A stretch of DNA of 64,000 nucleotides from Octopus vulgaris (Eukaryota), in contig OX597820.1 in assembly GCA_951406725.2 (NCBI GenBank), positions 98,146,001 through 98,210,000 on the forward strand, given 5' to 3'. Shown here piece by piece: positions 615 to 55,022 of this stretch. Both the position numbers and the translations under genes were made by a program. The notes beneath the pieces are model-generated. The model did no database searches and was not told the origin of the DNA. It saw nothing but the letters and a program-made list of their open reading frames with translations. Within the stretch, counting starts at the first letter, position 1. Each line of letters opens with the position of its first letter.

Positions 615-1510
615 AGCCGTAGGTTTGTGGAAAGAATCTTCCTTCGCAACCACATAGTTCCGGGTTCAGTCCCACAGCGCGGCACATTGGGCAAGTGTCT
701 CCTATGATAGCCTTGGGCCGACCAAAGCCCTGAGAGTGGATGTAGTAGACGGAAACTGAAATCGGCACGTCGTATGCATATATATATATTGAGTCTCTTC
801 TCGCGAAAGTATTTGTACTGAAAATCAAGATCGAGTGAGCTTTTGCCCTTTTGCTGGTCCCGTAGCTGACCAATTTCAAATTCTCTGTCTCTCCGTTCTC
901 CGACCTTCAAGACATTTTCCAAGAGTTACCCATTATTCTCATTTCCATGGCCCCAAGGTTGTATTTTGTCCGACTGATCGTTCTCGCCCACCTTCACACT
1001 CTGTGCCGTTTTGCTTGTTTTGTTTTGTTTGCTCTTCTTCCTAATTCTCCGCAAAAAAAAACTTATTTTTACGGGCACCGCCAATTGGGAAGCTCTAAGC
1101 CTAATCTTTAAAGAAATATTACCAATTGGTCAATAACTGATGAAGAATTGAGGACCTTATATTCATCAAACTGTTTTGATCCATACGTGTAACTCCCAAT
1201 AAATTGGTTGAGCGCTCTTCTTTTGTTTGCCCTCTCACTCGTATATATGAATGTGTGTGTGTGTGTGTGTGTGTTGCCTGCGTTCAAGTCTGTGTTTGCC
1301 CCCCACCACCGCTTGACAAACCAGTGATGATGTGTTTATGTCCCCGTAACGTAGCGGTTCGACCAAAATGAACGATAGAATAAGTGTCTGGCTTGAAAAA
1401 AATGCGCTGGGGTCGTTTCGTTCGATTACAAATTCCTCAAGGCAGTGTCCCAGCATGGCCACAGTCTAATCATTAAAATAAGTAAAGAAGAAAAAAAGAA
1501 GTAAAAGAAT
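615..1510 (+). mobile_element. tRNA-derived SINE (family A), split at its internal (TA)n by an inserted element
   Basis: 5' half (GTTCCGGGTTCAGTCCCAC...GTAGACGGAAACTGAAA) at 615-785 and 3' half (GTCCCCGTAAC...CAGCATGGCCACAGTC...AAGTAAA tail) at 1245-1510 match intact copies at 51750-52170 and 60435-60830. Confidence 0.85.
790..1245 (+). mobile_element. T-rich non-coding insertion carrying a permuted hammerhead-like core
   Basis: Flanked by TA repeats inside a SINE; GAAA(1113)-N20-CTGATGAAG(1137). Confidence 0.5.
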
Positions 1511-3769
1511 TTATTTAATACTTAAATATTTATATTTTATCGTTATCAATGGAGTCGTAGGGTCATCGGGAAAGGATATGTTTTCATATTTCCATAGCTG
1601 CAGCGTTATTTCTGTCCTACGTATGGCATATTTCATGTATCTGGGTATCATTAGTGTGGTCGTACTCATGGCTAATTTCTTCCAGGAATTAAGGGGACAA
1701 AAATTGTTGTCAAAAGCCATTTCTCAATCAATCCATGCTATTCTTAGACCCTATTTTCTCATTCTACTATTTCTGATTATGCCTTCGTTGATCAGTAATT
1801 CATTTAGTCTTAGTTATATGAGAAACCTTTGTAGAAGCGGTGCAGCAAAAGAATGTAAAGAAATCAGTTATTGATCAACACAGGCATAATCATTTGAGAG
1901 AGGAGGGGTTAAGCATAACATGGCTTCGCTAACATAAGGCTCTTTATATTTTCTAATCTCTTAAGGCGGCGATCTGGCAGAAACGTTAGCGCGATTTATT
2001 CTCTTCTTTATTATTATTCTGAAAGATGAATGCAGGTACGTTATAGGCCTGTAATTTCTCGGTAGTATTAAAACCATTTTGTATTTCTGTGCCAAGTTAT
2101 TACTTCACCAGCGTCACTGTTTTTATGGAAAGTAATCCCTTCTACTATAGGCACATGGCCTGAAATTTGTGGGGAGAGGGGGATAGTCGATTACATCGAC
2201 CCCAGTGTTTCACTGGTACTTGAATTATTGACCACGAAAGGATGAAAGGCAAAAATCGACCTCGCCGGTATTTGAACTCAGAACGCATTTTCATGGAAAA
2301 TATTATGTGCTACCACATAGGTATTATGGCAATTCTCCTCTGTGTCTCATTTTGTGTGTCTGTCTGTCTATCTGTCCGATTGCCTCTTTGTCTGTCTGCC
2401 TGTATGCCTGTCTATCTGTCTACCTTTCTCTCTCTCTCTCTCTCAAAGTATATGGATGTGACAGCCTGCTCTTTTATGGCAAACCTTACTACTTCTGCTG
2501 TTGTATATTAGACTGTATCGCTGTGTGTTTTTATTTTTGCGGCAAGTGTATGGCAGATACACAGACATACATGCACATACCGAACACATAGGCACACACA
2601 TACAGGCACAAATGCAAAAGCAAGCGCTGACAAGGGTAAGTACCACAGAAAGACGAGAAAAACTAAACAAAATAAAGCCAGAAAGAAGACACAAATAGTC
2701 ATTGAGGTTACAGAATGTGTAACGAAAGAGCGTTGACAAAATAACCAATAATAATAATAATAAAGCTGAAGAAAAAGTCAAATAGTGCGTATGTTTATTG
2801 GCAAAATGGCCGTCCTCAAATATAACAATACACACATACATATAAATATATGCATAAATATAAATATACATATACATATAAATACATACGTGCATACACA
2901 CACACACATCAAATATCCGTCTATATCTTATGTTAATTCCCCGGCGTGGAGTATAAACACGTGCTAGGATTTTTTCCGAGATATGGGATAGCTTCTAGTC
3001 GAATCTAACAATCGTATAGTAATTGGATTTATGTATAAATACTGTTATAAGGACGATGCGGGCAACGATACTAGAAAGAGCGACAACATCTTTTACTTTT
3101 ATTATATCTGCTACTACAAACAATATGGATATCAGCTTTGGCCCAAGGCCAGATTTTGTTTCTTAATAACGGCGATAATATGGGAAGGAGAATAGTCGAG
3201 TAATGATTAAGGGAGTGGTACTACTTAACCTTATAAATAGCATTTATATGGTAAAGGGACAGTGGCAAATATGGTGTATATTGTCCAGCACTTTTTCCTT
3301 TCCTACAATATATCACTCGGATTCATCTGTAAGTAATAGTTCTTTACATTGGAACAAGGTCACATATGTCGTTGGAAGGAGAATAATCGTCGACTAAAAT
3401 TTCATTGATCCGTGACACTGGAGGGAAAAGTTAGAAAGTTCTGCGGCTGGATTTCAAAGGGAAAGTAGAAAGAAGGGTAACTAAATATCGCATTGCTATT
3501 GTTTCTGTCACAATTCATCTGCTAATAATTGTTTCTAGTCTCGGCACAAGACCCTGAAATTTAGGAAAGGGGAATCAGTCGATAGTCATCGATATCATTA
3601 ATTGACTGGTTCTTTATTTTATAGACCTAGAAAAGTATTAAATTTAAAGTTGATCTCAGGGATGTTTGAACCCAGAATTTAAATAGCACGAACAAATATA
3701 CCAATATATTTTTCCACTCTAGTAATAACAGCTACTAAGTCCAGCAATTTTTATTAGAAGAGGAACTCG

Positions 3770-4580
3770 ATAATATAAAATCCCAGTACATGACTGGTAT
3801 CCTAATGCAAAGTTGGCTGCGGCAGGATTTAAAATCAGAATATGAAACACCGTATTTGAATACTACAAAGCATTTTGTCCGATGCACAAGTGATTCTGTC
3901 AATCCACCTTGGTTGGCACAATTACTAATAAGAAATATTGGCTTCAAACTGAGACAAGGCCAGTAATTTAGTGGGAGTAGGCACTTCGACATAACTGGTA
4001 TTTATTTTATCGCTCACGAAAGGACGAAAGGAAAAGACGACTTCAGCAATATGTGAACACAGAACGTAAAATCGGAAGAGATGCTGCTAAGCATTTTGCG
4101 CGTTGTGGTAACGATTCTACCAGCTAGCAGCCTTACTAACAAGGGTCTTGAATTTGTTTACACTAGGCCGGCAATTTTGGGTGAATGGTCACTCGATTAC
4201 ATCGACCCGATGCTCAACTGGTACTTATTTTATCGATCCTGAAAATGTGGAATGTAAAGTTGACCTAAGCGGTATTTGAACTAAGAACGTAAAAACAGGC
4301 GAAATGCCGCTAAGCATTTGGTTCAGCTTGCTAACGATTCTGTCAGCTGGAGGACTGAAGAAGAATAAATATTGGTTTCAACTTTTGGCTCAAGGCCAAC
4401 AATTTTAGAGGAGGGTGTAAGTCGATTACATCGATCCCAGTGCTAGAATTTATCGACCCCGAAAGGATGAAAGGCAAAATCAACCCTGCTGGACTTTGAA
4501 CTCAGAAAGTAAAGACGGGCGAAATGATTCTAAGCATTTTGCCCGGCGTGCCAACGATTCTTCCAGCTAACCGTCATAAT
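3770..4580 (-). repeat. Tandem cluster of degenerate family B SINE copies
   Basis: Repeated blocks GATTACATCGACCC...GAAAGGCAAA...TGAACTCAGAA...AAGCATTT...AACGATTCT, roughly every 200-240 bp. Confidence 0.75.
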
Positions 4581-4701
4581 ATAATTTTTACGAAGGCATA
4601 TGTGTCCTAATTATACCTTTTTTTCCGGTCAGACGAAAGCTTTGAGAGTGGATTTTGTAGACGGAAACAAAATGTATATAGATATATATATATATATATA
4701 T

Positions 4702-4970
4702 ATCTTTATATATAAAAGTGAAGTTGTGTGTCTGTCTCCTACGATTTAGATTCCTAACTACTCCCACATTTTGCGGTGCAGTTTAACCAAAAGCGGGTAT
4801 CTTATAGTCGTGATTCATATCGAGCCCTTCTGGGTATTAGCGTGCGTCTACGATGAGTCTACGATTTAAAAAAAATTTACCATCATTTTTTCCCATTTTC
4901 AATGCCTTTTTTTGCTATTATATAAGGGAAGTAACTCTCTAAAAATTCTTATATAGTTATTTCCCTTAGA
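4702..4970 (+). mobile_element. Possible Helitron-like 5' end fragment
   Basis: Begins A|TCTTTATATATAAAAGTGAAGTTGTGTGTCTGTC, resembling Helitron 5' termini; no 3' CTRR hairpin seen. Confidence 0.35.
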
Positions 4971-4994
4971 AATGAATGAAAATTAAAAACATTA

Positions 4995-5670
4995 TATATG
5001 CATATATGGGTACAGGACATCACAAAACGTAAACATCATGAAATACGAAGGCAAAAGTGGGTATGCGAACAACAAAAGAAACAAATGGAAAACAAGACAA
5101 GTAACATAAAGAACGACCCTTCATCAATTGTCGGTTATTCAGCTGCTCTGCATTTCGAGCAATTAACGACAATATGAGGCTTCGAAAAACAGTTGCTCCC
5201 GCGAGCCAAAGTAAAATTTGGGATTTGCGGAGGGTCAAAGTTGATAATAAAAACAGGTCAGCGGAAACAAACAACAAACCAAAGGAAAACAAAACGTTAG
5301 GCCAGACGAAGTAAGGTAGCGAACGCTGGAGGAATATTCTTTGACAAGATAAAAGATGGGAGAGGAAAGAGATAAGAATGCTTCTGGTCTCTGCGTCCAT
5401 CTTTCGTTTCTTCACGTGATCATCTTCCTTTCACCTTCAATCTGTCGCACTGACCAGACGCATTCTTATCTGCGACCAGATGCATTCTTAAACATGGAGT
5501 AGATGAACAGCTGACAACTGATGAAGGGTCGTTCTTTATATTACTTGTTTTGTTTTCCATTTGCTTTCCTCGTTGTTCATATATCCAAGTTTACCTTCGT
5601 AATTCATGTTGTTTTCATATTTCATGTTGTTCACGTTTTGTGACGACCTGCACCCATATATGCATATATA
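4995..5670. mobile_element. Head-to-head inverted-repeat element (Penelope pLTR-like) with hammerhead-like cores
   Basis: About 4995-5135 is the diverged reverse complement of about 5510-5670; both arms carry (C/T)TGATGAAGGGTCGTTC; homologous to 35490-35775. Confidence 0.75.
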
Positions 5671-6349
5671 TATATATACATATATATGTATGTACATATA
5701 TGTATGTATATCACGTGATCACGTGACCGACCAGACCATCATATGTTGTTACACATCGCTGGTCACAATGCGTTCGCATTGTTTTAGCCTTCGAATGACG
5801 CTACCCCGCTGGCTAAGCGAGCAGGCCAATATGTATGTATATATGCATATATATATATATATATGTGTGTGTGTATGTATATATCTATGTGTGTGTTTGT
5901 GTGTGTTTCTGTGTATGTTTCTCCCCCACCACTGCTTGACCACCGGTGTTGGTGTGTTTACGTCCCCGTAACATAGCATTTCGGCAAAGGAGTCCGATAT
6001 AATAAGTACTATGCTTATGTGTGTGTGTGTGCGTGCGTGTGTCTGTGTTCATCCCTCCCCACCGCTTGACAACCGGTGTTGGTGTGTTTACGTCCCCCGT
6101 AACTTAGCAGTTCAGCCAAAGCTACCGATATGATAAGTGCTTGGCTTTAAAAAAGAAAATAAGACCTGGGAAGTGGGGTCTATTTGTTTGACTGAAACCT
6201 TTGAAGACGGTGCCCCAGCATGGCCGCAGTCACATGACTAAAGTAAAAAACGACGATAAAAGATACATACAAACGCACACATGCACACACGCACATACAC
6301 AAAATGCGCGCACGCATACACACACATGCACACACTCAGGTATGCATAC

Positions 6350-6760
6350 ATATACATTTATTCTTTTCTACTCTAGACACAAGGCCCGAAAATTTGGGGG
6401 AGGGGGCCAGTCGATCAGATAGACATCAGTATGCAACTGGTACTTAATTTATCGACCCCGAAAGAATAAAAGGCAAAGTCGACCTCGGCGGAATTTGAAC
6501 TCGGAACGCAGCGGCAGACGAAATACCTATTTCTTTACTGCCCACAAGGGGCTAAACACAGCGCGGATAAACAAGGACAGACAAACGGATTAAGTCGATT
6601 ATATCAACCCCAGTGCGTAACTTGTGCTTATTTAATCGACCCCGAAAGGATGAAAGGCAAAGTCGACCTCGGCGGAATTTGAACTCAGAACGCAGCGACA
6701 GACGAAAAACTGCTAAGCATTTCGCCCGGCGTACTAACGATTCTGCCTGCTCGCCGCCTT
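6350..6760 (-). mobile_element. Family B tRNA-derived SINE dimer
   Basis: Two tandem copies of ATCGACCCCGAAAG(A/G)AT(A/G)AAAGGCAAAGTCGACCTCGGCGGAATTTGAACTC (B-box-like GAGTTCAAATTCC on minus); 5' end AAGGCGGCGAGCAGGCAGAATCGTTAG. Confidence 0.85.
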
Positions 6761-7594
6761 TCATACATACATACATACATACATACTTACATACATACAT
6801 ACACACACACACACGCATATATGTATATGTATATATATATATTTATATATATATGTGTGTATATATATATATACACACACACATATATATATACATTGTG
6901 TAAATGTGTGTATGTTTATATATCTATGTAATTGTCTTATAGAAAATTGAAAGAGTAAAAAAAAAAATTTAAATGATGTGAGATTAAATTTGTCCCAAGG
7001 CACACCAAGAAACAAACTATTCGCTCAACTTAATGGGAGGTCGAAAGAAAACTCTATTGACGTAAAGTTAAAAATCATTGCCTTGGACGGAATAGAATTC
7101 TGTAATTCTGTAATTCTATCGATTGTAACAGTGTTTACGTTTTGCTTCTTTGTTGTTTTTTTTTTGTATTTTTTTCTATTTGCCAATGTTTTGTAAACAA
7201 TGAGACTGATTGAACGCTGATCAAACCCTATGTAGGAGGGGTTATGTTTTTCTGTTTTACATGTATACATACAACGTATACATAGCAAAGTAGCATCTGT
7301 TTATTATTATTGTTTCTTCTTCTTCTTCTTCTTCTTCTTCTTCTTCTTCTTCTTCTTCTTCTTCTTCTTCTTCTTCTTCTCCTCCTCCTCCTCCTCCTCC
7401 TTCTTCTTCTTCTTCTTCCTCCTCTTCTTCTTCTTCTTCTTCTTCTTCTTCTTCTTCTTCTAATTAATTATTATTATTATTATTATTGCATCAATATCAT
7501 AATCCTCCTCCCCTTCCTCCACCTCCACCTCCACCTCCACCTCCCCTCCTCCTCTTCTTCCCCCCTCCCCCTCCTCCTCCTCCTCCTCCTCCTC

Positions 7595-9350
7595 GGTAAG
7601 TGATTCCCTTCAGCCACCTCCTCTGTGACAAACATTGGAAAATAAATTAAGTAGGTGGTCCTTGATGTAAACAGACTGGTGGCTATCCATGCTCCGTATT
7701 TCTTCCGATGTCTGGAGGCTTTCCTCGGGAACGTCTCGACTTTTAATGTTAGTGGGTGACTGGAATGCCATCTTGGACACACATTTAAATTGTATGGGAT
7801 TAAATGTTAGAAGACGGGGGTGCAAAAGCCTTGAAACCCACTCAGACATTTTCAGTTGTCTGACAGGTCCAGACTGTAATTCTCGAATGTGCCAGTGTGA
7901 ACATGGATGAACCATATCGGGTCATCTGGGTTGTGTCTAGATAGAGTAAGCTCTAGGTCCGTAGATAAGGAAAGCATAAGTTGCTTACTTTCCAAAATCC
8001 TAACCTGCACAGACCACAAATTTGTGGTCTGCATGGTCGACCTAGACAGGTCTCGTAGGAAGGGACACGGTTACTGGAAGTTGAACGCGTTACTCTTGGC
8101 ATACCAAGCTTAGAGAGACCGGAATACCGTATTAGTTAAGTTGATGAGGTCAATCGTCAACAACAAACGGTGGTTTAACCTGTAAAGAGTAAATAGAGTG
8201 GAATGTATTAACGATAAAAAGGGATTAACGATAAAAAGAAGAAAGATGGATGGAAACTTAGAAATGTAGAAGAGGCGCTTAGGAAAGCACTACAACCGAC
8301 GTGCTCGCGGCGAGATTGACCCTGGATCAATTCAACGCTAAGCACGGAGGATGCATTGTTAGACCTAAGGCGCATGGGAAACAAGAGAACGGAAGCCGCT
8401 CATTAAGCCCGGGTGGCAGAGGTGCAACGTGGCAAAAAATCCACAATTTGGTTTTTGGTGGTCTAAAGTGGGCGCATGATACTCGAACCTGAGCAGATGT
8501 ATGCGGCATTTCAGCAGCACTTCGCTGAACCGTATGGAACGAATGGCAATTCAGAATTCAGAATGGTTCAGTGGCTAACCCGACGGTATGCCAGGACTCT
8601 CGGTAAGGTACGCTGAACGTTGTGAAAGGCTGGTAACAGTTGTGGAAATATGGTATGCGATGATGGGCTATAGGGTGAGAAAATCGTCTAGCTTGGATGG
8701 TCTGCCTTACGAGCTTTACTGTTATATGCCTGGTATTTGGCAGCCTCTTAGAAAATATCTACCGCAACGGGCAACAGAACGAGAGAATTCCTAGTTCTGT
8801 GTGTCGAAAAGCGGTGGTACTGCTAAAAAGGATCGAAATAAGGGGGACCAAATAGAAAACTTTAGGTCCATAACGCTGCTAAGCGTAGATTTCAAGACCT
8901 TGTTTGGTCCAGATCTGCAGGAGAAGAAGAACTGGGTCAAGGTGATGAGCAGGGTGGCCAGTCACACCCAGAAATAGGCTGAGAGAAAGCTGCCATTGAA
9001 AGGTTGTGCGGAAGTGGTGAAAGCATACATCGCCTTCGTTATATATAACCTCCATACTGTCATACCTTGCTCCAGTTTACGTCTGACCAAGCTGGAATGC
9101 ATACTCTTCCGCTTTTTGTGGAAGCAACACGTTCCACCGATCGAGCGCTCCATTTTTGGTCAACACCTGCCTAATGAAAGACTGGGCATTCCGTGGCTAC
9201 TAATGCGCAGACATATGCTAAGCCTACGACATCTCCAGCACTCCCTTCACGGTGAGCAGAGCGGATGCTGTCATGGCGGACCGGTTTTGGTCTAATCTCC
9301 AGCTGAAAAAAAATCAAGGTCCTGGCCAATGGCACCCAGGAATGCGACGA
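7595..9350 (+). pseudogene. Decayed L1/Tx1-clade LINE ORF2 (APE endonuclease plus RT fragments)
   Basis: Motifs LVGDWNAILD, TDHKFV...GHGYWKLNALLL, KSSSLDGLPYELY, ENFRSITLLSVDFK and LFRFLWK...LGIP occur in the expected order, with stops and frameshifts. Confidence 0.9.
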
Positions 9351-10029
9351 AAGAAATCAAACCCCTGATATGGATATTCATGCTGATATTGTGTGAAGAA
9401 TGACACTGGAGTGGACTATACAAAAGATACTTTTAAAGTTATTACCATCAATAATATTGACATCTGCAATAACCTTATACACATGTACATTTTGATAAAA
9501 TTAAAATATTTTATTGGCATTACATACAACAGAATCAATGATAACTTTTCTAGACACAGGTAGGTTTGAGACAGAGATTGCATCCAGTCAAAGAAGAAAT
9601 GTAACAAAGGTCTCTCATATCGGGTTGTATCTTCTTATATAAGGAATTTATCCAAGAACAGGCAAAAAGAGAAGATTCAAATCACTGCCTCTCGAATAAA
9701 GAAGGGGTCTACTTAGTGTCACCCACCCACTTCAAAATATATATATTATATTGGAGCGGGCATGGCTGAGTGGTAAGAAGCTGGCTTCCCAATCACGCGG
9801 TTTCGGGTTCAGTCCCACTGCCTGGTAATTGGGTAGGTGTCTTCTACTACAACTTCGGGCCAACCAAAACCTTGTGAGTGGATTTAGTAGACAAAATGAG
9901 AGTATCCCGTCGTATATATGTATGTGTGTGTGTACGCGCGCGCGTGTGCCAAATTATCTACAGTATCTGTATTGATATGTCTGTGTACTTGTAGCTTAGT
10001 TCATGTTAATATAAATGGTAGAAGGGTAA

Positions 10030-10504: not shown

Positions 10505-10576
<72 letters not shown>

Positions 10577-10617
10577 AGAAAGAAGAAAGAATGAGAGATA
10601 GAGATAGATAGATAGAT

Positions 10618-11388: not shown

Positions 11389-11995
11389 ATGGCTTGTAGA
11401 TGTGATGGCTTGTAGATGTGATGGCTTGTAGATGTGATGGCTTGTAGATGTGATGGCTTGTAGATGTGATGGCTTGTAGATGTGATGGCTTGTAGATGTG
11501 ATGGCTTGTAGATGTGATGGCTTGTAGATGTGATGGCTTTTAGATGTGATGGCTTTTAGATGTGATGGCTTGTAGATGTGATGGCTTTTAGATGTGATGG
11601 CTTGTAGATGTGATGGCTTTTAGATGTGATGGCTTGTAGATGTGATGGCTTGTAGATGTGATGGCTTGTAGATGTGATGGCTTTTAGATGTGATGGCTTG
11701 TAGATGTGATGGCTTTTAGATGTGATGGCTTTTAGATGTGATGGCTTTTAGATGTGATGGCTTGTAGATGTGATGGCTTGTAGATGTGATGGCTTGTAGA
11801 TGTGATGGCTTGTAGATGTGATGGCTTGTAGATGTGATGGCTTGTAGATGTGATGGCTTTTAGATGTGATGGCTTTTAGACGTGATGGCTTTTAGATGTG
11901 ATGGCTTTTAGATGTGATGGCTTGTAGATGTGATGGCTTGTAGATGTGATGGCTTGTAGATGTGATGGCTTTTAGATGTGGTGGCGTGTAGATGT
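11389..11995. repeat. 16-bp minisatellite (ATGGCTT[G/T]TAGATGTG)n, about 37 copies
   Basis: Directly visible tandem array with no spacers. Confidence 0.97.
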
Positions 11996-18466: not shown

Positions 18467-18533
<67 letters not shown>

Positions 18534-18536
<3 letters not shown>

Positions 18537-18724
18537 GGGGAGAATTCACGAAAAAAATAAAAACACGAAGACAGGTGGTATAGACAACAAACAGATGTAT
18601 TAGTTTAACGCTCAGGAAGTGGAGAAGTCTTTAACGTTTCGAACCTATGCTCTTCCACAGGAAAGAACACAGAAAGAAACAAGGAATGAAAATAAGGAAT
18701 GTGTAGTGGCTAGCGATCTATCAT
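18534..18724 (-). mobile_element. Short (TA)n-embedded element with variant minimal hammerhead at 18629-18665
   Basis: Minus strand CTTTC-CTGTGGA-A-GAGC-ATAG-GTTC-GAAA-C-GTT-AAAG; core deviates from CTGANGA. Confidence 0.6.
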
Positions 18725-22377: not shown

Positions 22378-22919
22378 CAGTGTAATAAATAAAATATATG
22401 CATACATACAAACATATATGTACGTACCTACATCTACATGTATATATACATGCATATATAAATATATATACGTGTGTACAGGACACCACAAATAGACGTA
22501 GAACTCAACGAGAAACGAAAAAGTAAAAACAGCATGGAACGGACCATTTTTTTACAACGAAAAAACAGAGTACAAGATAACTACACATGGAAAAATCCCC
22601 TTCATCAGCTGTCCCTAGTTCAACTCCAGCGTGTTTCGAAGGAGAGGACAGAACACGTCTCGTCGAACCAGTCCTTCCTGCGAAAGAATTAAATAAAATT
22701 CCTTTGCAGAGGGGTAAAAACAAGGAAAAAAATGTGACAAAAACAGGACGTAAAAACAATACAATTAAAAACGAATACAAAATAAAAATACAATTACAAA
22801 ACATACAGTACAAGAAGGAATAGAAACAGGACAGGAAAACAAATAATGAGGGCCTATAAGCCTAGACGATGAAAAAGTTTCACGAGCGCAGGAAGAAACA
22901 TGTTTACTTGAAGAAGGCC

Positions 22920-27360: not shown

Positions 27361-27437
27361 TATATATATACATATATATATAAGTGAATTGAAGAAATGG
27401 AGTTGAACGAAGATTGAACAGAAATCGTTTTATTGCA

Positions 27438-27517
27438 TTCTACACGTGTTTCGAAAGCCACAATTTACCAAATTCCGATTGAATAAGGAGACCATATTGT
27501 GTCTTTCTCTTCAGGAA
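27438..27517 (-). ncRNA. Type I hammerhead ribozyme motif (mirror copy)
   Basis: Exact reverse complement of 27696-27775. Confidence 0.85.
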
Positions 27518-27695
27518 GAAATAGGAAATCCGTTGGAAAAAACAAAAACAGAACAGAGGCGGAGCAAAACAAATCGAACGAGGCTCCTAAGAGCCCATGG
27601 CCAAACACTTGGCCATGGGCTCTTAGGAGCCTCGTTCGATTTGTTTTGCTCCGCCTCTGTTCTGTTTTTGTTTTTTCCAACGGATTTCCTATTTC

Positions 27696-27775
27696 TTCCT
27701 GAAGAGAAAGACACAATATGGTCTCCTTATTCAATCGGAATTTGGTAAATTGTGGCTTTCGAAACACGTGTAGAA
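27696..27775 (+). ncRNA. Type I hammerhead ribozyme motif
   Basis: Helix I TTC/GAA; CTGAAGA at 27699; helix II GAAAG-A-CACAAT / ATTGTG-G-CTTTC; GAAA at 27761; palindromic helix III ACACGTGT; GUA cleavage triplet at 27770-27772; AATAAA just downstream. Confidence 0.85.
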
Positions 27776-28033
27776 TGCAATAAAACGATTTCTGTTCAAT
27801 CTTCGTTCAACTCCATTTCTTCAATTCACTAATAATATTAAAATTCAATTATCCGCACCAACGCATGGTTGCAACACCATATGGTTGTACCTCCAACCGT
27901 GCTGTCTTCTGCTGTGATTTTTGCTACCAAGGTATCGGTTAAACTTTTGATTAATCTGCAACAAGATTATTCATCTTTCTATTTCACATAATACATATAT
28001 ATATATATATATACAGATGTCGTGCAAACAGCA

Positions 28034-30585: not shown

Positions 30586-31833
30586 CACGAGGGGTGTATG
30601 AAATGTTTTGAGCTAACCTAGAAACGGGGCTGCTAGATAGCTGAAATAAATTTTGCTGGTAAGTACAGTCTTTTCGGGATAATCTTGCTCATTTTCATGA
30701 TTCTGATATTTTTGAATAAACAACTGTCGAGATTTCAAGGAAAATGGAGAAAGTAGAATATCGTGCTGTCATAAAGTACCTTCATTTGGAAGGCATGACT
30801 CCATCGGAAATCCATGAAGATATGGTGAGGATCATAACAGACAATACTCCTTCATATGCAAAGTCAAAAGGTGGGTAAATGAATTCGAGCGTGGCAGGGA
30901 GAGTGTGGAAGATGATCCCAGACCAGCGAGACCTCCAACTGCAACAACCGAGGAAAACATTGACCTTGCTCTTGGTATGATACTGCAAGATCGCCGAATA
31001 TCATGTCGTCAGATAGCCGAGAGACTGGGCATCTCAACTGAAAAAGCAGACAACATTGTGACAAAAAACTTGGGTTCTCAAAGTTTTCCGCAAGGTGGGT
31101 CTCTCGCCTTTTGATTCCTGAACAGAAACACACCAGGTGCACTTTGTCCACGAGCAATCCAGAACTGTTTGAAGCCGATGAATAGAATTTTCTTGCTCGT
31201 TTCATTACTATGGACGAAATTTGGGTTCATCACTACCAGCCTGAAACCAAAAAACAATCAAAGCAGTGGAAACACACGTCTTCTCCTACCTCAAAGAAGG
31301 TCAGTGTCATTCCTTCAGCTGACAAGGTCATGGCGTCTGTTTTTTGGGGGATTCTGAAGGAGTCTTGCTGATCAGTTACATTGAAAAAGGTCACACCGTG
31401 TATTATTCTCAGCTACTGAAACGCCTCCGAGAAGCAATCAAAGAAAAAAGCTGGGAATACTCACCGAAGGAGTCGTTTTTCATCACGACAATGCTCCAGC
31501 CCACACATCAGTGGTTGCCATGGGAACAATTCGTGATTGTGGATACGAACTTGTTCCCCATCCGCATTGCCAGATTTAGCCCCTCTGATTTTCATCTATT
31601 CCCCAAAATGAAACAAGCCCTAGCAGGTCGCCATTTTGCCATTGACAATGACATCATAGAGGCCGTAGAAAGTTTCTTAGAGTTTCAAACAAAAGAGTTC
31701 CCCGCCGGGATAATGGCGCTTCAGCACCGCTGGAGAAAGTACTCAGCCATCGAGAGGGACTATGTTGAAAAATAAATCATCAGAAGTCTTGTACTATGTT
31801 TTGTTTGAGGTTCAAGACTTTACATACACGCCT

Positions 31834-35461: not shown

Positions 35462-35489
35462 CACATACATATAAATATATATATTTTAT

Positions 35490-35775
35490 ATATATATGTA
35501 TTCACATATAGGTACAGGACGACACCAACTGTGTAAACACCATGAAGTACGATAACTAACCAGTTAAACACGCAAACAACGAGAGAAAAGGGAAAACAGG
35601 ACAAGTAAGATAGAGACGGACTCTTCATCAGTTGTTGCCTGACTGTCTACCGCTCATTTCGAGCATTCAACGACAATATGAGTCTTCGAAGACAGTTGCT
35701 CCCATAATTTCCGAAATAAAATTTTGGATTTATGGAAGGTCAATGTTTGGAACAAAAACAGGATAGTGGAGACAT
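35490..35775 (-). mobile_element. T-rich element with permuted hammerhead-like core (35619-35664)
   Basis: Homolog of 4995-5260; minus strand GCTC-GAAA-N25-CTGATGA-A-GAGT. Confidence 0.75.
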
Positions 35776-35841
35776 ATAGAAATATATATATATACACATA
35801 GTGAAACTAATCGAAATGTAACTATTAACATACATACAAAC

Positions 35842-36281: not shown

Positions 36282-36563
36282 CAAAAATACAAAAATGGGA
36301 CAGGAACGCAAAACATCCAGTCAGTTAGGTGTTACAAAAAAGGGACAACAAAACATCCAGATAGCCGAGGCCATTCAGAGTTTTCTTTTCTCAGTTGAGT
36401 TCCAGATTGTCTTTGCAATTTCGACTGGTTATACTCGAGATTGCTCAAATCTGGTCAGCCCCAAGGAAAAAGTAAGCTAAGAGCTCTAGTTTCCGTGGAA
36501 GAAAGCGGCGAATGTATACGAAAACAAGGACGGAAAAAACGGAGAAATGGTACACAAATACAC
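36282..36563 (-). mobile_element. T-rich element ending at (TA)n with decayed permuted core (36387-36425)
   Basis: Minus strand GTC-GAAA-TTGCAAAGACAATC-TGGAACTCAA-CTGAGAA. Confidence 0.5.

Positions 36564-45280: not shown

Positions 45281-45285
<5 letters not shown>
44400..45285 (+). mobile_element. Decayed maT/Tc1-like transposase and right TIR
   Basis: FDQDQKVSKRNDKWLC...HTKFPATAM...PYFFPQGLRVN...WRPNSPDLNPLDYY; ends TACGCACCCTG followed by TA. Confidence 0.85.
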
Positions 45286-45353
<68 letters not shown>

Positions 45354-45784: not shown

Positions 45785-45831
<47 letters not shown>

Positions 45832-47584
45832 AAGGGGGAGCGAAAGAGAGAGAGAATATATAGATATCTATTATAATTATTATTGCAGGGTTGCAGGGAC
45901 GCAGAAAAATAATTGTAAATTATGAGTTTCATTCATAATGAATTTGCAAATCTATCAGCGATTTAATTGAGTCATTAACCTCTAGATGCCATAGTGTCAA
46001 GATGTATCATATCGGTTTCACATCGTCAACCAGAAGTGATTAAATTATAATCGGAACTGGAAGTGCTCAATGTTTGCGGCACATTCAGGAAACGGACTAT
46101 TACATTTTTGAAGCTAATCAAAAAATATGGGCTTGATTAAGTGAACCAGTAAAACGTCTGTAAACTTTCTTTGCTTGTTTCTTTCTTTCTTTCTTTTTTC
46201 TTTCTTTCTTTTTCAAGATGTTGGAGCGTCTCTGTGTTTACTGTACATGCTAAAAATAATGAACAAATCTCATCAATGGAGAAAGATTCATTGGATAATG
46301 TAATGAATGCTACATACACATGAAAAAAAAAATTACAGAAGCAAGGATGATCACGGTCAGAACGGCTTTTCCTATAGATTTACTGGATTCGGGTCGACCT
46401 GGGACTATATATTTTAGTAATGCATTTTTTTTAATCCTGTAATATTTATTTTTAATATGTCTCTTAACATAATCGGAAATTATATTTTCCGGAGACTGAT
46501 ATTAACATTCATTTTGGCGACACTGTTTCTTTTTCTTTCAATACTTCTTAAGTTTATTTCCTTCATTAATTGATATTGAATTAATAATATTAATAAAACG
46601 GAATCATCATGCAGTACGAGAAATTACTTCCTTCCTCATGTTTTTAAAAACTATACTCATTTACAAAATTTAATGTACTATACTGTGTGGGCAGATATTC
46701 ATTTTTGAATGCATGTGTTATTGGAGATTTTTAAAATAACAGTCAGAGAATGTCAATAAGCTTAAATGCCAAGAGGATAGAAGAAATATAATGTTTCGGT
46801 GTAAAGTCATTTGTCGGAATAATGAACAACATTATTACTCCGTCAAAGGATCGACAACTGCAAGACATTTGGGTTGATGTACTATTATAACCGACACCGA
46901 GCCCCGCCTGTTTGCTCTCACTTTCCAGATTCTGCACTTTCGTATATAAATTTTATAATAAGACGGAAATATTGAGTATTAAATATGAATGATTATCTCT
47001 ACCATTCCGATTGCAGTTCTGATCATACGATTTTTCTCAGAACAGAGAAAGGTTTTCTATTTTTTATCATAATCATTTGCTTCTTTTTTTTCGCTTTTTC
47101 CTTTCTTTCTCTTTATTTGCATTCTTTTAAACTTTCTTTTTCTCAGAACCTATGCAGTAAGTTTGTTGGCAAGCTAAGTTCACATTGAACGTAAGTAACT
47201 CTGTTATTCTTGCTTTGATTTTCGAAAAAAATATTCACTTACCCTCGTGCTGTTGATTACTGGATACGCCTGTTATAGAATTATTCATCATATGATAAAG
47301 GATTTCGTGTGATACGAGGGAGAGATGATTACTACTTCAAACTGAATGACCAATCACATAGATGCTACCTATGTTGTAGCTTGATCTGTTAGTTATATAA
47401 GCCTTATTTCCCACAAGTCGTCTCAAGAAAAACAGAAGATATTGCATAATATGCCCAGCTTACAAGAAGCGTGATGGAGGCCTAAAAAAACGTATTAGCA
47501 CATAGTTCTGCAAGAACAGCTCTTATGTAAGACTAAACAACAGAAACAACTACAACAACCATATTATAATTCGCATCGACGGGC

Positions 47585-47870
47585 TCTGTTACCGGATGAT
47601 AATTACACGATAAAAGATTATGAAATGGTGTATAATTTCCAATTTCCTAGGAGACTTCTTTTTTTGCTTAGAAAATTACTTTGGTCGTCGTTTAGAATTA
47701 AATAGGATTACTTTAATTTGAATTAGATTATTAAAGCTTTAATGAATTTTACACATGACATTTAAAATACTTAATAGGCTGTCAACCAAAATAATCTTGT
47801 CACAAAATATGACAATAAATATAGTTGCAACTTAGACACAAAAGCTCTGCGAGCCAAATGTTGGAAACTG
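47585..47870 (+). repeat. Diverged AT-rich repeat, second copy at 53595-53880
   Basis: Shared GATAATTACACGAT, TTACTTTG(G/A)TCGTCGTTTA, AATTAAATAGGATTA and TAATAGGCTGTCAAC in the same order. Confidence 0.8.
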
Positions 47871-48851
47871 ATATATATATATATTATATATATATATATA
47901 TATTATATTAAATTAGAGATAAAACCACTATTAGGCAAATCAAACAGTGAAAATCATAAGCCAATACATAGAAATAAAATTAATTAAAAAATATAAAATA
48001 TAAAATATAAAAATCCAATTAAAATATTCAAATTAAAGTTAACATTTTAAAAATTATTCAAATTAATAATTTAAACTTATAAATTATAAATATATATATA
48101 TATTTATTATTATTTAATTATTCCTTTTTTTATTTAAATTATTATTATTTTTTTAAATATTTTTATATTTTTTATATTTTTATATTTATTTATTTATTTA
48201 TTTTTTTATAAACTATCAAAAAGTATTAAAAGTTTAATAAGATAAAAAGTATATATATATATATATATTAAAAAATAAATATACACGTATATGCAGACAT
48301 ATATAGTTGATAGACGCACATAAGACGCGTCAGTAAAGTTTTAGTCTGATTAAACAAGATATTGAATCACTGAGAATGCACAATAACTGAGCAATTTGTC
48401 TGGGATATGGCTTTATGTATATGTGAATTTAACTGAAAAATTGAGCCACAAAATTACTGTGTGAAGAAAATATGAGATATTTACCCCTAGTTACATGGCG
48501 GAACATCTTGTTGATCCTGTGGCAACTCACCCCACGAATCACTTTTAATTTAAAGGTAGTTACTCGCATGGTCACTGAACATATAGGGGAGGTTGGTATC
48601 ACAAGTAACTGGTATATAAATCGGCAAGGAATGGCCAAGCGATAAAAGCAGTTACGTTGTTTATCACTGAGAAAATAATAAGCTTCTTAGAAAAGTAGTG
48701 AAAAATACGTTCGGAGTGGTCTCGTGGTGGAACATAATTTAGGATGCTTAAACACATTCCATTATGCACACAAATCTAGCAGGAAAATGTTACTTTAACT
48801 TAGCGAGATATTTAATTAATTAGAATGTACAAAGACTCCACAGATAGTCGG

Positions 48852-49046
48852 AATCTATTCCATTTGACGGCCAGATTTTTTAATATTTTTTTAACACTTT
48901 AAAACCTCGGATACTGACAAAATTTTGTCAAAACCGTTAAGAGTAAATCCTGTTCTGTGTGGCATATTCTACCAATATCCAAAGTTTGAAAGTGTTTATT
49001 AAAACAATTATAATTAAAAAATCTGTCCGTCAAATGGAATAGATCT
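48852..49046. mobile_element. MITE with about 32-bp TIRs and 8-9-bp TSD
   Basis: ATCTATTCCATTTGACGGCCAGATTTTTTAAT versus ATTAAAAAATCTGTCCGTCAAATGGAATAGAT; GATAGTCGG at 48843-48851 and 49047-49055. Confidence 0.9.
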
Positions 49047-49168
49047 GATAGTCGGTGGTATTAGTGTGCATATAGTTAAGTTAAGTTAAGTTAAGTTAAA
49101 CCCATTGGAAAGGTCGCAGAAAAAGCAGAAAAAGATGGCTCTTCTCAAATATAACAATATTAGTCTCA

Positions 49169-49222
<54 letters not shown>

Positions 49223-49410
49223 CACACACACATTGTTAGATAAATAAATAGAAAGATTCACAGCTATAGATATACACACATTCATACATATGTATTCATG
49301 TAAATGTAGATATACATTTACATGAATACATATGTATGAATGTGTGTATATGTATGTATATGTGTGTATGCACATATATGTATGCATATATATGTATATA
49401 TATATATATG

Positions 49411-49535
<125 letters not shown>

Positions 49536-49550
49536 ATGCACATATATGTA

Positions 49551-49601
<51 letters not shown>

Positions 49602-49710
49602 TTAATGTAGGATAAAATATTTTTCGAAAAAAATTTTGTTAATGGCCAGCATATTAAAAAATACCTTTAAAGGTTAAAATTATAAATAACTTATAAATAA
49701 GGCCACATTT

Positions 49711-49761
49711 ATCACCGACGAAAGGAGGGTTCTTACGAACTAACCCTGAAATCGGTCCGAT
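49711..49761 (+). ncRNA. Decayed type I hammerhead motif
   Basis: ATCA-CCGACGA-AAGG-AGGGTT...AACCCT-GAAA-TCG-GTC-CGAT, in a block bounded by (TA)n. Confidence 0.5.
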
Positions 49762-49912
49762 ATGGTAATGATGGAATTTTTTTAGATATTTCTGTCGGTT
49801 TTTTTTTTCGAGTAGCGTGCGTATTGTGATAAATTATATGGTAATGGACAATATGTCCAATTTTTCGGCATATTTGGCATTAGAATTTTTTTCGTTTGCC
49901 CTTATTTATAAG

Positions 49913-49970
<58 letters not shown>

Positions 49971-50140
49971 GTGTGTGAGTGCACGCGCCAAATGTGTGTA
50001 TGGAAATATAAATACGTTCATTTCTATACCTATGTCCAGCTATCTAACTATATGTGTGTGCATGTTTGTGCCTCTGTGTGTGCGTGCACGTGCATGTGTG
50101 TGTATGTGCGTGTGTGTGCGTGTGTGTTGTGCGTGTGTGC

Positions 50141-50186
<46 letters not shown>

Positions 50187-50189
50187 GAA

Positions 50190-50745
50190 CCAATATTGTT
50201 ATATCTTAGAAAGATCATCTATTTCTGAGATCTTTCCAACTAGCTTAAATTTTCAGATGATTTTGGTTTTTCCGGCTGATTTTTCAAAGAGTTTTTCTAT
50301 TTGATAGTTATATTGTATGGCAATTTGTTTTATTCGTTTTCATGTATGTTTGTATATTTTGCTTCCTTTCATTGTTGCCAATATAAAAACAGCTGCTTGC
50401 ATATATTGTTGGATTAAGTTTGTTTTAGTTTCATTATATACTTATCATTGTATTAGTCAGTGTGGTGCTGGGTTGTAGTTAAGAGACGCTGTATTCTATT
50501 TCTTTTTTTATTATTCTTTAAGTGTGTATGTGTGTGAGGTGCGATTATATGCTCCCTGTAATCTGTTTTAGTTTTAGGTTTTTCCAAAATTTATATTTAT
50601 CCAGAGTGTTTTTGTATAACATGTTGATAGAGTATAAATGATTGTTTCTCTTTATTGTATTGTAGCTATTCTTCAAATATTTCGGCGGTATTGCTGGCCA
50701 TTTCTCTTGTATAGGCTTATTGTGATTTCTTAATTCTGCATATCA
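50190..50745 (-). pseudogene. Possible Penelope-like GIY-YIG endonuclease relic
   Basis: Very A-rich minus strand with ICKQLFYIGNNERK resembling C..YIGxTxR; heavily decayed. Confidence 0.35.
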
Positions 50746-50759
50746 TGTATGTATGTATC

Positions 50760-50829
<70 letters not shown>

Positions 50830-50879
50830 TATGTTGCTCCAAGCCATGTCTAACTTAATAGCACCACCTGATAGGATTA

Positions 50880-51322
50880 TCTAAATCCTGTTTAAGTCAA
50901 GTTTTGTTTATGGTCCATTCATGTAGTAAGTTCTTGTTAACTGAGTTTTATCCAGGTTTGGGTGGCTTATCCGGTATTCCTTGAAGAAATCTGTCCAGAC
51001 TCTGTTTAAAGGTGTTGGGATCCTTTTCCACTTTGATCTCTTTCGGGGTAAAGTTAAACGGCAGGCCTGTTGAGGAAAAGAAATTATGTCGCAGTGTACC
51101 TATATGCTGTGATCCTGAATTGGGCAGGGGATCTATGGCCCATGGTCCTAGCCTTGGATGAACCTTGAAACTAATGTTCAGGACATTTGGGCAATGCCGA
51201 CGGTATATTCTCCATATTCTACGTATGATATACTGCTCGCGGCGGCGCTGGAGAGTGTAGAGTTTCAAGGCTTTAAAGCGGTCCCAATAATCGAGATCAG
51301 TCATGCCTTCAATTCGTTTAGT
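50880..51322 (-). pseudogene. CR1-clade LINE 3' end
   Basis: TKRIEGMTDLDYWDRFKALKLYTLQRRRE...FNFTPKEIK...FKQSLDRFLQGIPDKP. Confidence 0.88.
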
Positions 51323-51393
51323 ATATATATATATATATATATATATATTTGGTACCAACCCACAGATAAGCTACAAAAGAAATGTGCCAGACG

Positions 51394-51437
51394 TCCTTGA
51401 CGTTTTGAGTTTTGAGCCTACACTCTTCTGCAGAAAC
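51394..51437 (-). ncRNA. Decayed minimal hammerhead (related to 18629 and 57013)
   Basis: Minus strand TT-CTGCAGA-A-GAGT-GTAG-GCTC-AAAA(CTCAAAA)-C-GTC-AAGG. Confidence 0.45.
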
Positions 51438-51749
51438 GAACGAGGACAGAAAACAGATAGAGGAAGAAAAAGTGCTGAGAAGAAAATCGTATCTGGATTA
51501 ACGGTTGCAGAACGAAATAGCTCACTTCTCGGTCCGTCCACACATAGAAACACTTACACACTCATATATCATGAGTACGACAATAATTCTACCTCATCTC
51601 CAACAGAATGGATAATTAGACTAATGTGACCAACAAATTTGTCAGTGCATAACTTTACGCGTCTATGATGATAGGTTTAAATGAGAATTCATAGTAGGGT
51701 ATGTGAGCTGTAAGTTCCGCATTAATTCGCCATAGTGGCATGCATATAT

Positions 51750-52170
51750 GTACTCTTTTTTACTCTTTTACTCTTTTACTTGTTTCAGTCATTTGACTGC
51801 GGCCATGCTGGAGCACCACCTTTAGTCAAACAACTCGACCCCGGGACTTATTCTTTGTAAGCCCAGTACTTATTCTATCGGTCTCTTTTGCCGAACCGCT
51901 AAGTGACGGGGACGTAAACACACCAGCATCGGTTGTCAAGCAATGCTAGGGGGACAAACACAGACACACAAACACACACACATACACACATATATATATA
52001 TACATATATACGACGGGCTTCTTTCAGTTTCCGTCTACCAAATCCGCTCACAAGGCCTTGGTCGGCCCGAGGCTATAGTAGAAGACACTTGTCCAAGGTG
52101 CCACGCAGTGGGACTGAACCCGGAACCATGTGGTTGGTAAACAAGCTACTTTCCACACAGCCACTCCTAT
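51750..52170 (-). mobile_element. Full-length family A SINE
   Basis: tRNA-like head, internal (TA)/(TG) tract, conserved body and (GTAAAAGA)n tail. Other copies at 42690-43170 (+), 52870-53250 (+), 60435-60830 (-) and 63708-64000 (-). Confidence 0.92.
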
Positions 52171-52869
52171 GTAAATTTTTATGTTATGCATATATTGTTG
52201 TGAATATTCTACAATGAAGTTAAAAAATCTTCGATTTGTTATTAATATTAATATTGTTATTAATATTAATATAATATACCTGCTAACTACCCAAAGAACT
52301 GCGTATTTCCTTATCGAGCACTTTTCACGCTTTTGATGCTCCATGCATTTTGCTGCAACCGAGTTGCTGCACCTATAGGCGGGTCACTTCAGCTGATACA
52401 TGTGATCTGTCACCATCACCCTGATATCGAACAACCTATTTCTTCGCCACATGGTAGGTATAACATAAACCCGGAATCCACCGAACCGGACGGCTACATT
52501 TCTGGCTTTTTTGTTATCGTTCGAATGGATGAAAGACAAACCTATCAAAATGAACGAGTTACTCACCCAGAGTGAGGGGGGATGCCAGAAGACTGAACAA
52601 ACCACACAAGGCGTTATAGCCAACGCTCTTCCGACCCTACAAGCTCTCAACCTTAATAGTATGTACGAATATTAACTGATATTAATATTTCTCCGTCCTT
52701 ACGTTTTCACTTCAAATTCTGCCGAGGTCAACGTTTCCTTTCATACCTTTCGGGGTTGATAAAATATGTACCAATTGTGTAGTAGTGACGATGTAATCGA
52801 CTAACTCCATACCCCTAAAGTGCTGGCCTTGTGTCATAATTTGAAACAAATATTCGTAGTTTAGGCGTA

Positions 52870-52996
52870 CGAACCACATGGTTCCGGGTTCAGTCCCACT
52901 GCGTGGCATCTTGGGCAAGTGTCTTCTACTATAGCCTTGGGCCGACCAAAGCCTTGTGAGTGGATTTGGTAGACGGAAACTGAAAGAAGCCCGTCG

Positions 52997-53041
<45 letters not shown>

Positions 53042-53250
53042 TTGTGAGTCTGTAATTGTCTCCATAACATTACTTGACAACCGACGCTGGTGTGTTTACA
53101 TCCCCGTAACTTAGCAGTTCGGCAAAAATGACCGATAGAATAAGTACTAGGTATACAAAGAATAAGTCCTGGGGTCGATTTCCTCGACTAAACACGGTGT
53201 TCCAGCATGGCCACAGTCAAATGACTGAAACAAGTAAAAGAGTTAAGAGA
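52870..53250 (+). mobile_element. Family A SINE
   Basis: Collinear with the reverse complement of 51750-52170. Confidence 0.9.
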
Positions 53251-53929
53251 GTTCTGCCTGTATAGCATTGTATGTATATTACACATTATACATGTATGGA
53301 AAGGAATGCATATATTGTTTTAAAGCCGAAGAGTATGCTTTTGCATGGACTGCAAGATACAGCAGCTAAATATCCCTTACATCTCATCTAACGTCCGTAA
53401 GAGATGAACACAAGAAGTAATGTAATCCTATATATACTGTGTTGTATATATACATAAAAGATGAGACTGTAATAGTTGTTGTATTTGATCATAAGATCTA
53501 GTATAACACTGCTGACCTTTGGCTAAAAAAATAACAAAACAGTAAGAACAACAACAAATACTACTACTACTACTACTACTTCTCAAGCCCAATGCTTCTT
53601 TTACCGTGAGGTGATAATTACACGATTGGAGATTAAATAAATGGTATATAGTTTCTAATTTCCTACGAGATATTTTTTTTTTCATGCTTAGGAAATTTAC
53701 TTTGATCGTCGTTTACAATTAAATAGGATTAATTTAATTTTAATTCAATTATCTAAGCCTTAATGAATTTCACACATGTCTTTAAATATTTAATAGGCTG
53801 TCAACTAAAACTCCCTTGTCATTCAAATACAATTCGAGCTATCGAGCCAAACCTCTGGGAGCCGAATGTTTATAATCTGTTTGGTATAAAAGATTGAAAA
53901 TGGATCTACATACACCCCGTATATATACA

Positions 53930-54555
53930 TACCCACAGTCCTCCACACTGAATTCTCACTCCATCCGTATACATACATACATACATGCATGCAACACACA
54001 TACTATATTTTTACGACTCTATCTTTCCTGCATCTCTACTTCCTCTCACATCTCACACTTAATTGCAAACTGTCTCCCTTCCTTCCCCTGTTCTCTCTCT
54101 CTCTCTGCCGCTCTCTCTCTCATCCTCCTCCCGTCAATTTTCCACCCACACGTGACCCGTGACTGATTTTCTGTTCTGTGCCTTTTCGCTACCGGACGCC
54201 TAGCGTGCTGGTAAACTTTTTCTCTTCTCTTACTATTTTTTTATATCCATTTGAGGATTTCGTCCCGACGTTAACCATCACTCTCACGTTTGGCCGAAAG
54301 GCTTTATTTATTGTCTTAGTCTATCGTACGTACCCCATCTGTATTGCTTTGTTTACTCTAGCCCTAATTCTACGCAAATCTTGCGTGTGCCGCCGATATA
54401 CGACGTTCCTAGTTTTAGCATTAAAGGTACGAAACTGGGTAATAGTATTTTGGGTCGATAACTGAAGAAGGATTAGGGTCCTTGCGTCTGTCTTACGTGT
54501 ACGTTTTGTAGTATTTAATGCAGTTTTCATTTATGGAATAACTGACCGCCTCATA
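53930..54555 (+). mobile_element. T/C-rich element ending at (TA)n with permuted core (54430-54471)
   Basis: C-GAAA-N19-GTC-GATAA-CTGAAGA-AGG about 85 bp before the TA tract. Confidence 0.5.
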
Positions 54556-54684
54556 TATATATATACACAACATATATATACAACACACACACACACACAC
54601 ATAAATCGTTATGGTGATACAAACAGTGATTCATAGTCCTAGATAAGCACCAGCTCACGAAACACCCTGGACATTAAGTTACTC

Positions 54685-55022
54685 TTTTGCATGTTTTTAC
54701 CCCTCTGCGAGGTAATTTTATTTTAATTCTCTCGCAGGAAGGACTACTTTGGCGAGTCGTGTTCTGTCTTGCCTTCGAAACACGCTGGAGTCGAACTAGT
54801 GACAGCTGATGAAGGGGATTTTTCCTTGTGTAGTATGTCCTGTACTCTGTTTTTCTGTTGTAAAAAAATGTTTTTTCCGTTTTCGTTTCTCGTTGAGTTC
54901 TACGTCTAGTTGTGGTGTCCTGTACTCACGTATATATATTTATATATGCATGTATATATACATGTAGATGTAGGTACGTACATATATGTTTGTATGTATG
55001 CATATATTTTATTTATTACACT
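54685..55022 (+). mobile_element. T-rich element with permuted core (54772-54817)
   Basis: Sister of 22378-22740; CCTTC-GAAA-N25-CTGATGA-AGGGG. Confidence 0.8.

Follow-up and report, generated by a model that had tools for sequence, protein, structure and literature searches.

Hammerhead motifs of the pseudoknotted type SGC in Penelope-like retroelements of Octopus vulgaris, with predicted ribozyme activity

The stretch of Octopus vulgaris DNA under study (contig OX597820.1, positions 98,146,001 to 98,210,000; 64,000 nucleotides (nt), here called the window and numbered from its first letter) carries eight copies of a motif in which the two conserved boxes of the hammerhead ribozyme, GAAA and CUGAnGA, follow each other in reversed order. 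These boxes had been reported in a first-pass annotation, and all eight stretches were located at the positions and on the strands given there. The strict reversed pattern (GAAA...CUGAnGA) matches the window four times against a shuffle mean of 0.04, and a relaxed form matches six times against 0.88, with none of 200 shuffles equalling either count. Across the 2.8-Gb genome, boxes with A after the core gave 6,754 matches (115 for a reversed-pattern control), and those with C or T at that place gave 2,912 (155 for the control).

A hammerhead is built from three blocks. Block C comprises stem I, CUGAnGA and stem II; block G comprises stem II, GAAA and stem III; and block S comprises stem III, UH and stem I. 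In the octopus motif the blocks are arranged, 5' to 3', in the non-circular and pseudoknotted order S-G-C (type SGC), with the cleavage strand, block S, found 15-18 nt upstream of GAAA. The window copies belong to several non-coding families, labelled A to E below; two to three of the eight are intact, and the rest are decayed, truncated or deleted.

54692..55022, + strand: family A copy, 5'-truncated and non-coding, ending in (TA)n, 97.7% identical to copy L008
54758-54817, + strand: intact family A SGC motif
54758..54768, + strand: its block S (stem III 3' strand 54758-54761, U16.1 at 54762, H17 at 54763)
54758-54761, + strand: stem III 3' strand, 4/4 pairs with 54781-54784
After 54763, + strand: predicted cut, GUU triplet
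54764-54768, + strand: stem I 5' strand, 5/5 pairs with 54801-54805
54773..54784, + strand: block G (stem II strand, GAAA at 54777-54780, stem III 5' strand)
54801..54817, + strand: block C (stem I 3' strand, CUGAUGA at 54806-54812, extra A, stem II strand)
54743-54751 with 54792-54800, + strand: predicted fourth helix, imperfect in this copy, enclosing stem III
22597..22657, - strand: intact family A SGC motif, GUU triplet, predicted cut after 22652, in a copy at about 22379-22816
35620..35682, - strand: near-intact family B SGC motif, AUA triplet, one stem I mismatch, in a copy at about 35465-35776
After 35677, - strand: predicted cut of this family B motif
5116..5178, - strand: decayed family B motif, C3 changed to U, insertion in stem III, in a copy at about 5003-5440
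5489..5701, + strand: family B copy, 5'-truncated, blocks S and G lost, inverted partner of the copy with motif 5116..5178
36388..36444, - strand: decayed SGC motif, AUC triplet, core box damaged, a relative of the young tandem family E (77% over 171 nt)
54408..54470, + strand: decayed family C motif with an intact stem III, a mismatched stem I and a stem II reduced to one G-C pair
858..1158, + strand: dead family C copy, true G block deleted

Two of the boxes originally counted turned out to be accidental. The GAAA at 1113 derives from the linker, because the true G block has been deleted there, as comparison with the intact family copy L069 reveals, and the TAAA at 5489 is a junction product, because that copy is truncated at its 5' side inside the G block.

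The block order can be followed in single copies. At 54758 (+), CGTG-TT-CTGTC pairs with the CACG found 3' of GAAA and the GACAG found 5' of CUGAUGA, and at 35682 (-), CTCA-TA-TTGTCG pairs with TGAG and CAACAA. Pairing was then scored at 60 loci, the first 30 from each of two pattern searches, chosen by their boxes alone. The locus's own upstream strand pairs at 8-9 of the 9 positions of stems I and III in 29/60 loci, as opposed to 28/1,998 in a family-swap control, and perfect pairing (9 of 9) occurs in 21/60 loci versus 4/1,998 swaps. Setting aside 15 copies with simple repeats directly upstream, which are mostly truncated, leaves 26/45 at 8-9 of 9, and a control window placed 100 nt further upstream yields 1/60. 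In 29/29 well-paired loci the distance from U16.1 to G12 is 15-18 nt, and their cleavage triplets are AUC (10), GUU (7), AUA (5), GUC (4) and UUC, AUU and GUA (one each). The CUGAnGA box, the GAAA box and a U-H site are present in SGC-type loci, the identity of H17 as not G having been imposed by the search.

These pairings change how the locus is to be read. The first-pass annotation had described helix I as nearly absent, placed the cleavage site at the GTC of a conserved GTC-GACAA and proposed a type II-like topology that may need dimerisation. Helix I has in fact its full length of 5-7 base pairs (bp), with its 5' strand upstream of GAAA; GTC-GACAA is the 3' strand of this helix, the predicted cut lying about 15 nt upstream of GAAA; and helix III, with 4 bp plus A15.1-U16.1, is available inside one copy, without a dimer. 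A type II hammerhead (G-S-C) with almost no helix I, dependent on a dimer or a protein, would fit the fact that GAAA does come before CUGAUGA, as well as the ability of the outer flanks to close stem II in families A and B. However, 0/60 loci can form both helices with 2 bp inside the spacer, and a complementary, covarying strand lies upstream at a fixed distance, which makes this explanation extremely improbable. Two further arrangements were rejected: placing the cleavage block downstream (order G-C-S) gave 0/60 loci at 8-9 of 9 in a downstream window of fixed geometry, and tandem dimers of type I motifs, by reasoning, do not give rise to S-G-C as a sub-string.

Covariation was assessed on a MAFFT alignment of 16 rows, consisting of six window copies and ten representatives; as these ten were picked for full pairing, the set is biased. 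Under the named structure, 83% of the cells are paired and 40 double changes are counted, a level reached in 0/500 shuffles, and structures slid along the alignment pair in 37-54% of the cells. Nine of the ten pairs of stems I and III have changed on both sides, the tenth being an invariant A-U (these counts are uncorrected for relatedness), and G-U pairs alternate with Watson-Crick pairs. The first-pass suggestion that the boxes derive from a hammerhead was right. Stem II has no double change in this alignment.

Stem II is 3-4 bp long in families A and B and is accompanied there by an extra nucleotide after A9; an additional nucleotide separating positions 9 and 10.1 is a hallmark of PLE (Penelope-like element) hammerheads (PMC4209133; this and the other published accounts cited here are drawn on in part, and the comparisons extend to those parts). 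The pair G10.1-C11.1 is retained in families A-C, and both core boxes and A15.1-U16.1 are retained across families that differ elsewhere. In addition, the sequence 5' of block S pairs with the linker between blocks G and C, forming a fourth helix: runs of at least five Watson-Crick pairs occur in 13/29 own pairs versus 73/510 swaps. Rfam listed no hammerhead in the window among the 150 of 207 matches listed, nor did 20 loci give one at gathering score; SGC and CSG motifs escape both Rfam models and descriptors for types I-III.

The carriers are Penelope-like, as the first-pass annotation had supposed, and it was also correct that the motif lies close to a TA-inserting 3' end, on the T-rich strand, which is the sense strand. 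Families A, B and E, all non-coding, have 3' ends that are fixed and lie in (TA)n, 5' ends that vary, and units repeated head to tail. Their monomers measure 720-900 nt and are sometimes arranged in tandem, as illustrated by L328 of family E, with five head-to-tail units of 720-726 nt and one hammerhead per unit, and by L071, with a spacing of 898 nt; families A and B also contain head-to-tail junctions. Near the motif, nearest neighbours have a median identity of 99.5% in family E, 95.7% in family A and 90.7% in family B1, and 93.3% in the genome's own Naiads, a clade of PLEs discussed below. Families A-E and the Naiads share the same motif architecture. Non-coding tandem monomers with one hammerhead per unit are common to these carriers and to retrozymes and PLE type I elements (PMC4209133; bioRxiv 10.64898/2026.07.22.740005), and PLE hammerheads and the families described here also have in common the extra nucleotide 9/10.1, together with G10.1-C11.1 in families A-C (PMC4209133). 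They differ in that retrozymes and PLEs carry type I motifs whose helix III is palindromic, tiny and dependent on a dimer, whereas the motif here is pseudoknotted and holds a full helix III in one copy; the monomer length is a further difference from known retrozymes. Non-LTR (long terminal repeat) retrozymes are described with type I motifs only, in the part of the account covered here (bioRxiv 10.64898/2026.07.22.740005), and the carriers with their order SGC fall outside that definition.

Taken together, the S-G-C motif with its covarying stems I and III would be a monomeric, pseudoknotted ribozyme that cuts PLE RNA about 15 nt upstream of GAAA, a reading to which we give a probability of roughly 0.8. 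Transcripts of tandem copies would be cut to unit length and may circularise. The PLE reverse transcriptase (RT), primed in a (TA)n target, would begin 85-250 nt downstream of the motif; if it ran off its template at the cut end, short copies starting at the cut would result, and reverse transcription that continued round a circle or onto another template would produce tandems.

If the cut forms the 5' end of the RNAs, it should also be a frequent starting point of inserted copies. In family E, (TA)n 5' junctions were counted in three 31-nt windows as raw minus-strand counts (one per locus in the listed rows), the window anchors differing in the share of the family that they catch: 78 junctions fall at -52..-22, 434 at -22..+8 and 74 at +9..+39, with most listed junctions of the last window at +9..+11. 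Among the matches listed for this family, 19 distinct loci were read by hand, of which six begin at +1, nine at +3..+8 and four upstream, so that 15/19 lie at +1..+8 (P ~2e-6 if the starts were spread evenly). The 30 family A loci among the matches listed comprise 24 that begin at -1..+10 and six that begin upstream. This peak is an indirect hint of RNA cleavage at the predicted bond; the accumulated 5' ends would then be a genomic record of an RNA cut site, and they bear on what PLE hammerheads do.

The junctions could also be set by a DNA-level signal, such as a nicking or recombination site whose symmetry mimics RNA helices. Clustering of 5' junctions at the motif is what such a site would produce, and PLEs do encode a GIY-YIG endonuclease. 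Nevertheless, the motif occurs on one strand only (0/76 antisense in the outside loci described below), G-U alternates with Watson-Crick pairs, and the hammerhead core is rebuilt exactly by the crossing helices, in two different orders of the blocks (SGC and CSG); we therefore regard a DNA-level signal as very unlikely.

It is also conceivable, though unlikely, that the fold is real and non-catalytic on its own, being a hammerhead-derived structure that binds a PLE protein or stalls the RT. Such a role would sit well with a stem II that is weak or displaced in families C and E and many Naiads, and with the competing helix that buries G8-A9 in family A. It accounts less well for the conservation of the core boxes, of A15.1-U16.1 and, in families A-C, of G10.1-C11.1 across otherwise differing families. 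Moreover, the junction peak starts at the predicted scissile bond and drops upstream of it. An RT that stalled should do so on reaching the structure's 3' edge, and few junctions (74) were counted there. A protein helper, as the first-pass annotation had also considered, is possible in those families whose stem II is weak.

Several observations weigh against a self-cleaving SGC ribozyme, in addition to the imposed H17 and the selected alignment rows already mentioned. In family C, stem II amounts to a single G-C pair; its register is shifted in family E and many Naiads, a C after A9 lying 2-4 nt before GAAA; and only 59% of its cells pair in the 16-row alignment. Nested folding of seven motifs, by a method that cannot form pseudoknots, gave none that clearly beats shuffles (z -1.26 to 1.20), and it is in these folds that G8-A9 of family A is buried. 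A free downstream window, which is G/U-rich, reaches 8-9 of 9 in 9/60 loci, one of them perfect, and 10/24 of the family A junctions near the cut lie at a TA microhomology spot. Among the matches listed, families A-E contain no open reading frame (ORF) and no sequence alignable to an autonomous element beyond the motif. Finally, among the Naiad-type loci collected outside this genome, 63/76 lack a strict match, and no motif was found in 14 loci of the tree, among them a clade of eight, whose 3' sequence runs to 1,500 nt or more.

The Naiads are the PLE clade to which these motifs point. They have been reported to lack canonical hammerheads, eight of them being marked 'HHR_half_core' (Craig et al. 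2021, PMC8557442). The N-terminal GIY-YIG domain, an RT with DKA, insertion at (TA)n and decay in cephalopods are features of the published Naiads that were found here too; unlike in the published description, many Naiads here carry complete non-circular motifs. In the supplement of that paper, a complete SGC motif was recognised by eye at the 3' ends of two Octopus consensuses and in at least five other records, and the order C-S-G in at least four more, including those beside nematode entries. A 20-base pattern from the 3' end of a published Octopus Naiad has 469 matches in the genome, with 0 for the control. Within the octopus genome, the motif stands downstream of broken Naiad RTs and on the same strand in 5/30 loci, and likewise in 5/11 further regions. 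An own-genome Naiad remnant with DKA and YxDD groups with two SGC Naiads in a quick tree (support 97, long branch), its N-terminal endonuclease was not recovered, and every Naiad copy found in this genome is broken.

The outside set comprised 107 Naiad-type loci, 76 of them with at least 300 nt after the RT match. A descriptor covering six permutations found a non-circular match on the sense strand in 13 of the 76: seven SGC, five CSG (two identical) and one GCS (L273, which is CSG by eye). No type I-III motif was found on the sense strand of these loci, and the shuffles gave 2/228. A relaxed search of the other 63 added three SGC (two identical) and one CSG, with two antisense matches. Many of the outside contigs are too short, because the motif sits 90-1,800 nt after the RT match. 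CSG motifs stand behind Naiad-type ORFs in L191, L269/L270, L271 and L274, and by eye or relaxed search in L273 and L246. An N-terminal GIY-YIG was present in 9/10 outside carrier ORFs scanned, with DKA in 13/16 ORFs and DKG in 3/16, and on the quick tree SGC and CSG each require several changes. The organisms named for contigs from metagenome-assembled genomes are probably not the true hosts, and no Naiad relative was found among viral contigs.

Some of these outside elements have unusual features of their own. L200:267-4187(+) and L213:24-4055(+) are ORFs of Naiad type, about 1,300 aa long, that carry a ubiquitin carboxyl-terminal hydrolase domain at the C terminus (PF00443; E 1e-33 and 3e-26, respectively), and L201, L202, L206 and L280 probably have a C-terminal domain of the same type; an SGC motif accompanies all six. 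By eye, L200, L201, L202 and L206 share a short conserved stretch rich in G, about 10 nt after CUGAUGA, which could be a displaced stem II strand. L283 and L286, tandem Naiad copies, hold selenocysteine insertion sequence (SECIS) elements at gathering score, and no hammerhead was found in that clade.

Type SGC is a pseudoknotted, non-circular permutation of the hammerhead (Eckert et al. 2023, PMC10085705). That study was the first to describe a natural RNA in non-circularly permuted form, from environmental sequences without a known host; SGC and CSG RNAs cleave in vitro, and SGC came from metatranscriptomes, none being found in genomes of known organisms, according to the part of that account considered here. 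The octopus motifs share with published SGC (HRIMA-1 and variants) the block order, the crossing stems I-III, a complete core, the short S-to-G linker and the presence of a fourth helix (PMC10085705). They differ in their setting, an animal nuclear genome with thousands of copies in retroelements, in the extra nucleotide after A9, in a stem II that is often minimal or shifted, and in the fourth helix, which here is formed by sequence 5' of block S and the G-C linker and in the published RNAs is described as connecting the far sides of stems I and II. The published CSG class comprises two unique sequences from metagenomic DNA (PMC10085705) and has the order C-S-G and full stems in common with ours, which are tied to a defined carrier, ORFs with an N-terminal GIY-YIG plus RT. 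A 2026 paper cites alternative permutations in general terms only, in the part covered (PMC13725137), and full-text searches, whose coverage does not extend to subscription journals, theses or bioRxiv supplements, yielded no account of SGC or CSG hammerheads from Naiads or from animal genomes.

What is described here is therefore a known kind of hammerhead in a new setting, type SGC in animal retroelements, with activity predicted from sequence. Non-circular permutations are now found in many copies in the genome of an animal and linked with a defined clade of retrotransposons, and the published puzzle of how Naiads thrive without canonical hammerheads receives a direct answer: the SGC motif likely explains why they were thought to have none. 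On balance we also favour the broader proposal that SGC and CSG are the usual RNA-processing ribozymes of much of the Naiad clade across animal phyla and founded the SGC-type retrozymes seen here in thousands of copies. If so, pseudoknotted hammerheads would have their main reservoir in animal genomes, and among them would be a core variant so far undescribed, in which a new fourth helix props a shifted or one-pair stem II. Such motifs probably lie unnoticed in other animal genomes too, as Rfam and type I-III descriptors do not detect them, and many natural variants are now at hand for assays and structures.

As to what moves the non-coding families, an origin of the motif in Naiads is suggested more tentatively, and the youngest families may, also more tentatively, now be moved by PLEs with a C-terminal endonuclease. 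Such cross-mobilisation of family E is plausible, because family E is younger than any Naiad copy seen. The genome holds two intact, young families of such PLEs; both have type I-like motifs, not SGC, and they were accordingly rejected as the autonomous SGC carriers. The first (L081-L110, e.g. C7:9204672-9208166), of which at least 150 copies are 100% identical over 165 aa, has a type I motif with CCGAnGA as first box and two alternative 3' ends. The second (L409-L417, e.g. C2:34638500-34646500) has full pLTRs (Penelope LTRs) and a degenerate type I motif with an altered first box, and is the source of the window fragment 18534-18724. The type I motifs that the first-pass annotation had noted in sister elements proved real and match the 3' end of an intact PLE of this kind, the window sequence 18470-18677 being 80% identical over 217 nt, including the TA tail.

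18629..18656, - strand: degenerate type I motif, in the 3' fragment of an intact C-terminal-endonuclease PLE
57013..57047, + strand: minimal type I motif of a sister element, with a near-identical facing twin at 57813-57847 (-)

The latter pair is an inverted PLE-type insertion. A core in type I order (CUGAUGA, hairpin, GAAA), its stem II 4 bp long, was also observed at 58914-58940 (+). Among the remaining features of the window, 27379-27834 is a perfect 226-nt inverted repeat with a 4-nt spacer, which may be an inverted PLE 3' fragment or a miniature inverted-repeat transposable element, and 11389-11995 is a 16-bp minisatellite of 38 copies with 96% matches. Lastly, 31323-31775 (+) holds an ORF fragment that we take to resemble a mariner-type transposase.

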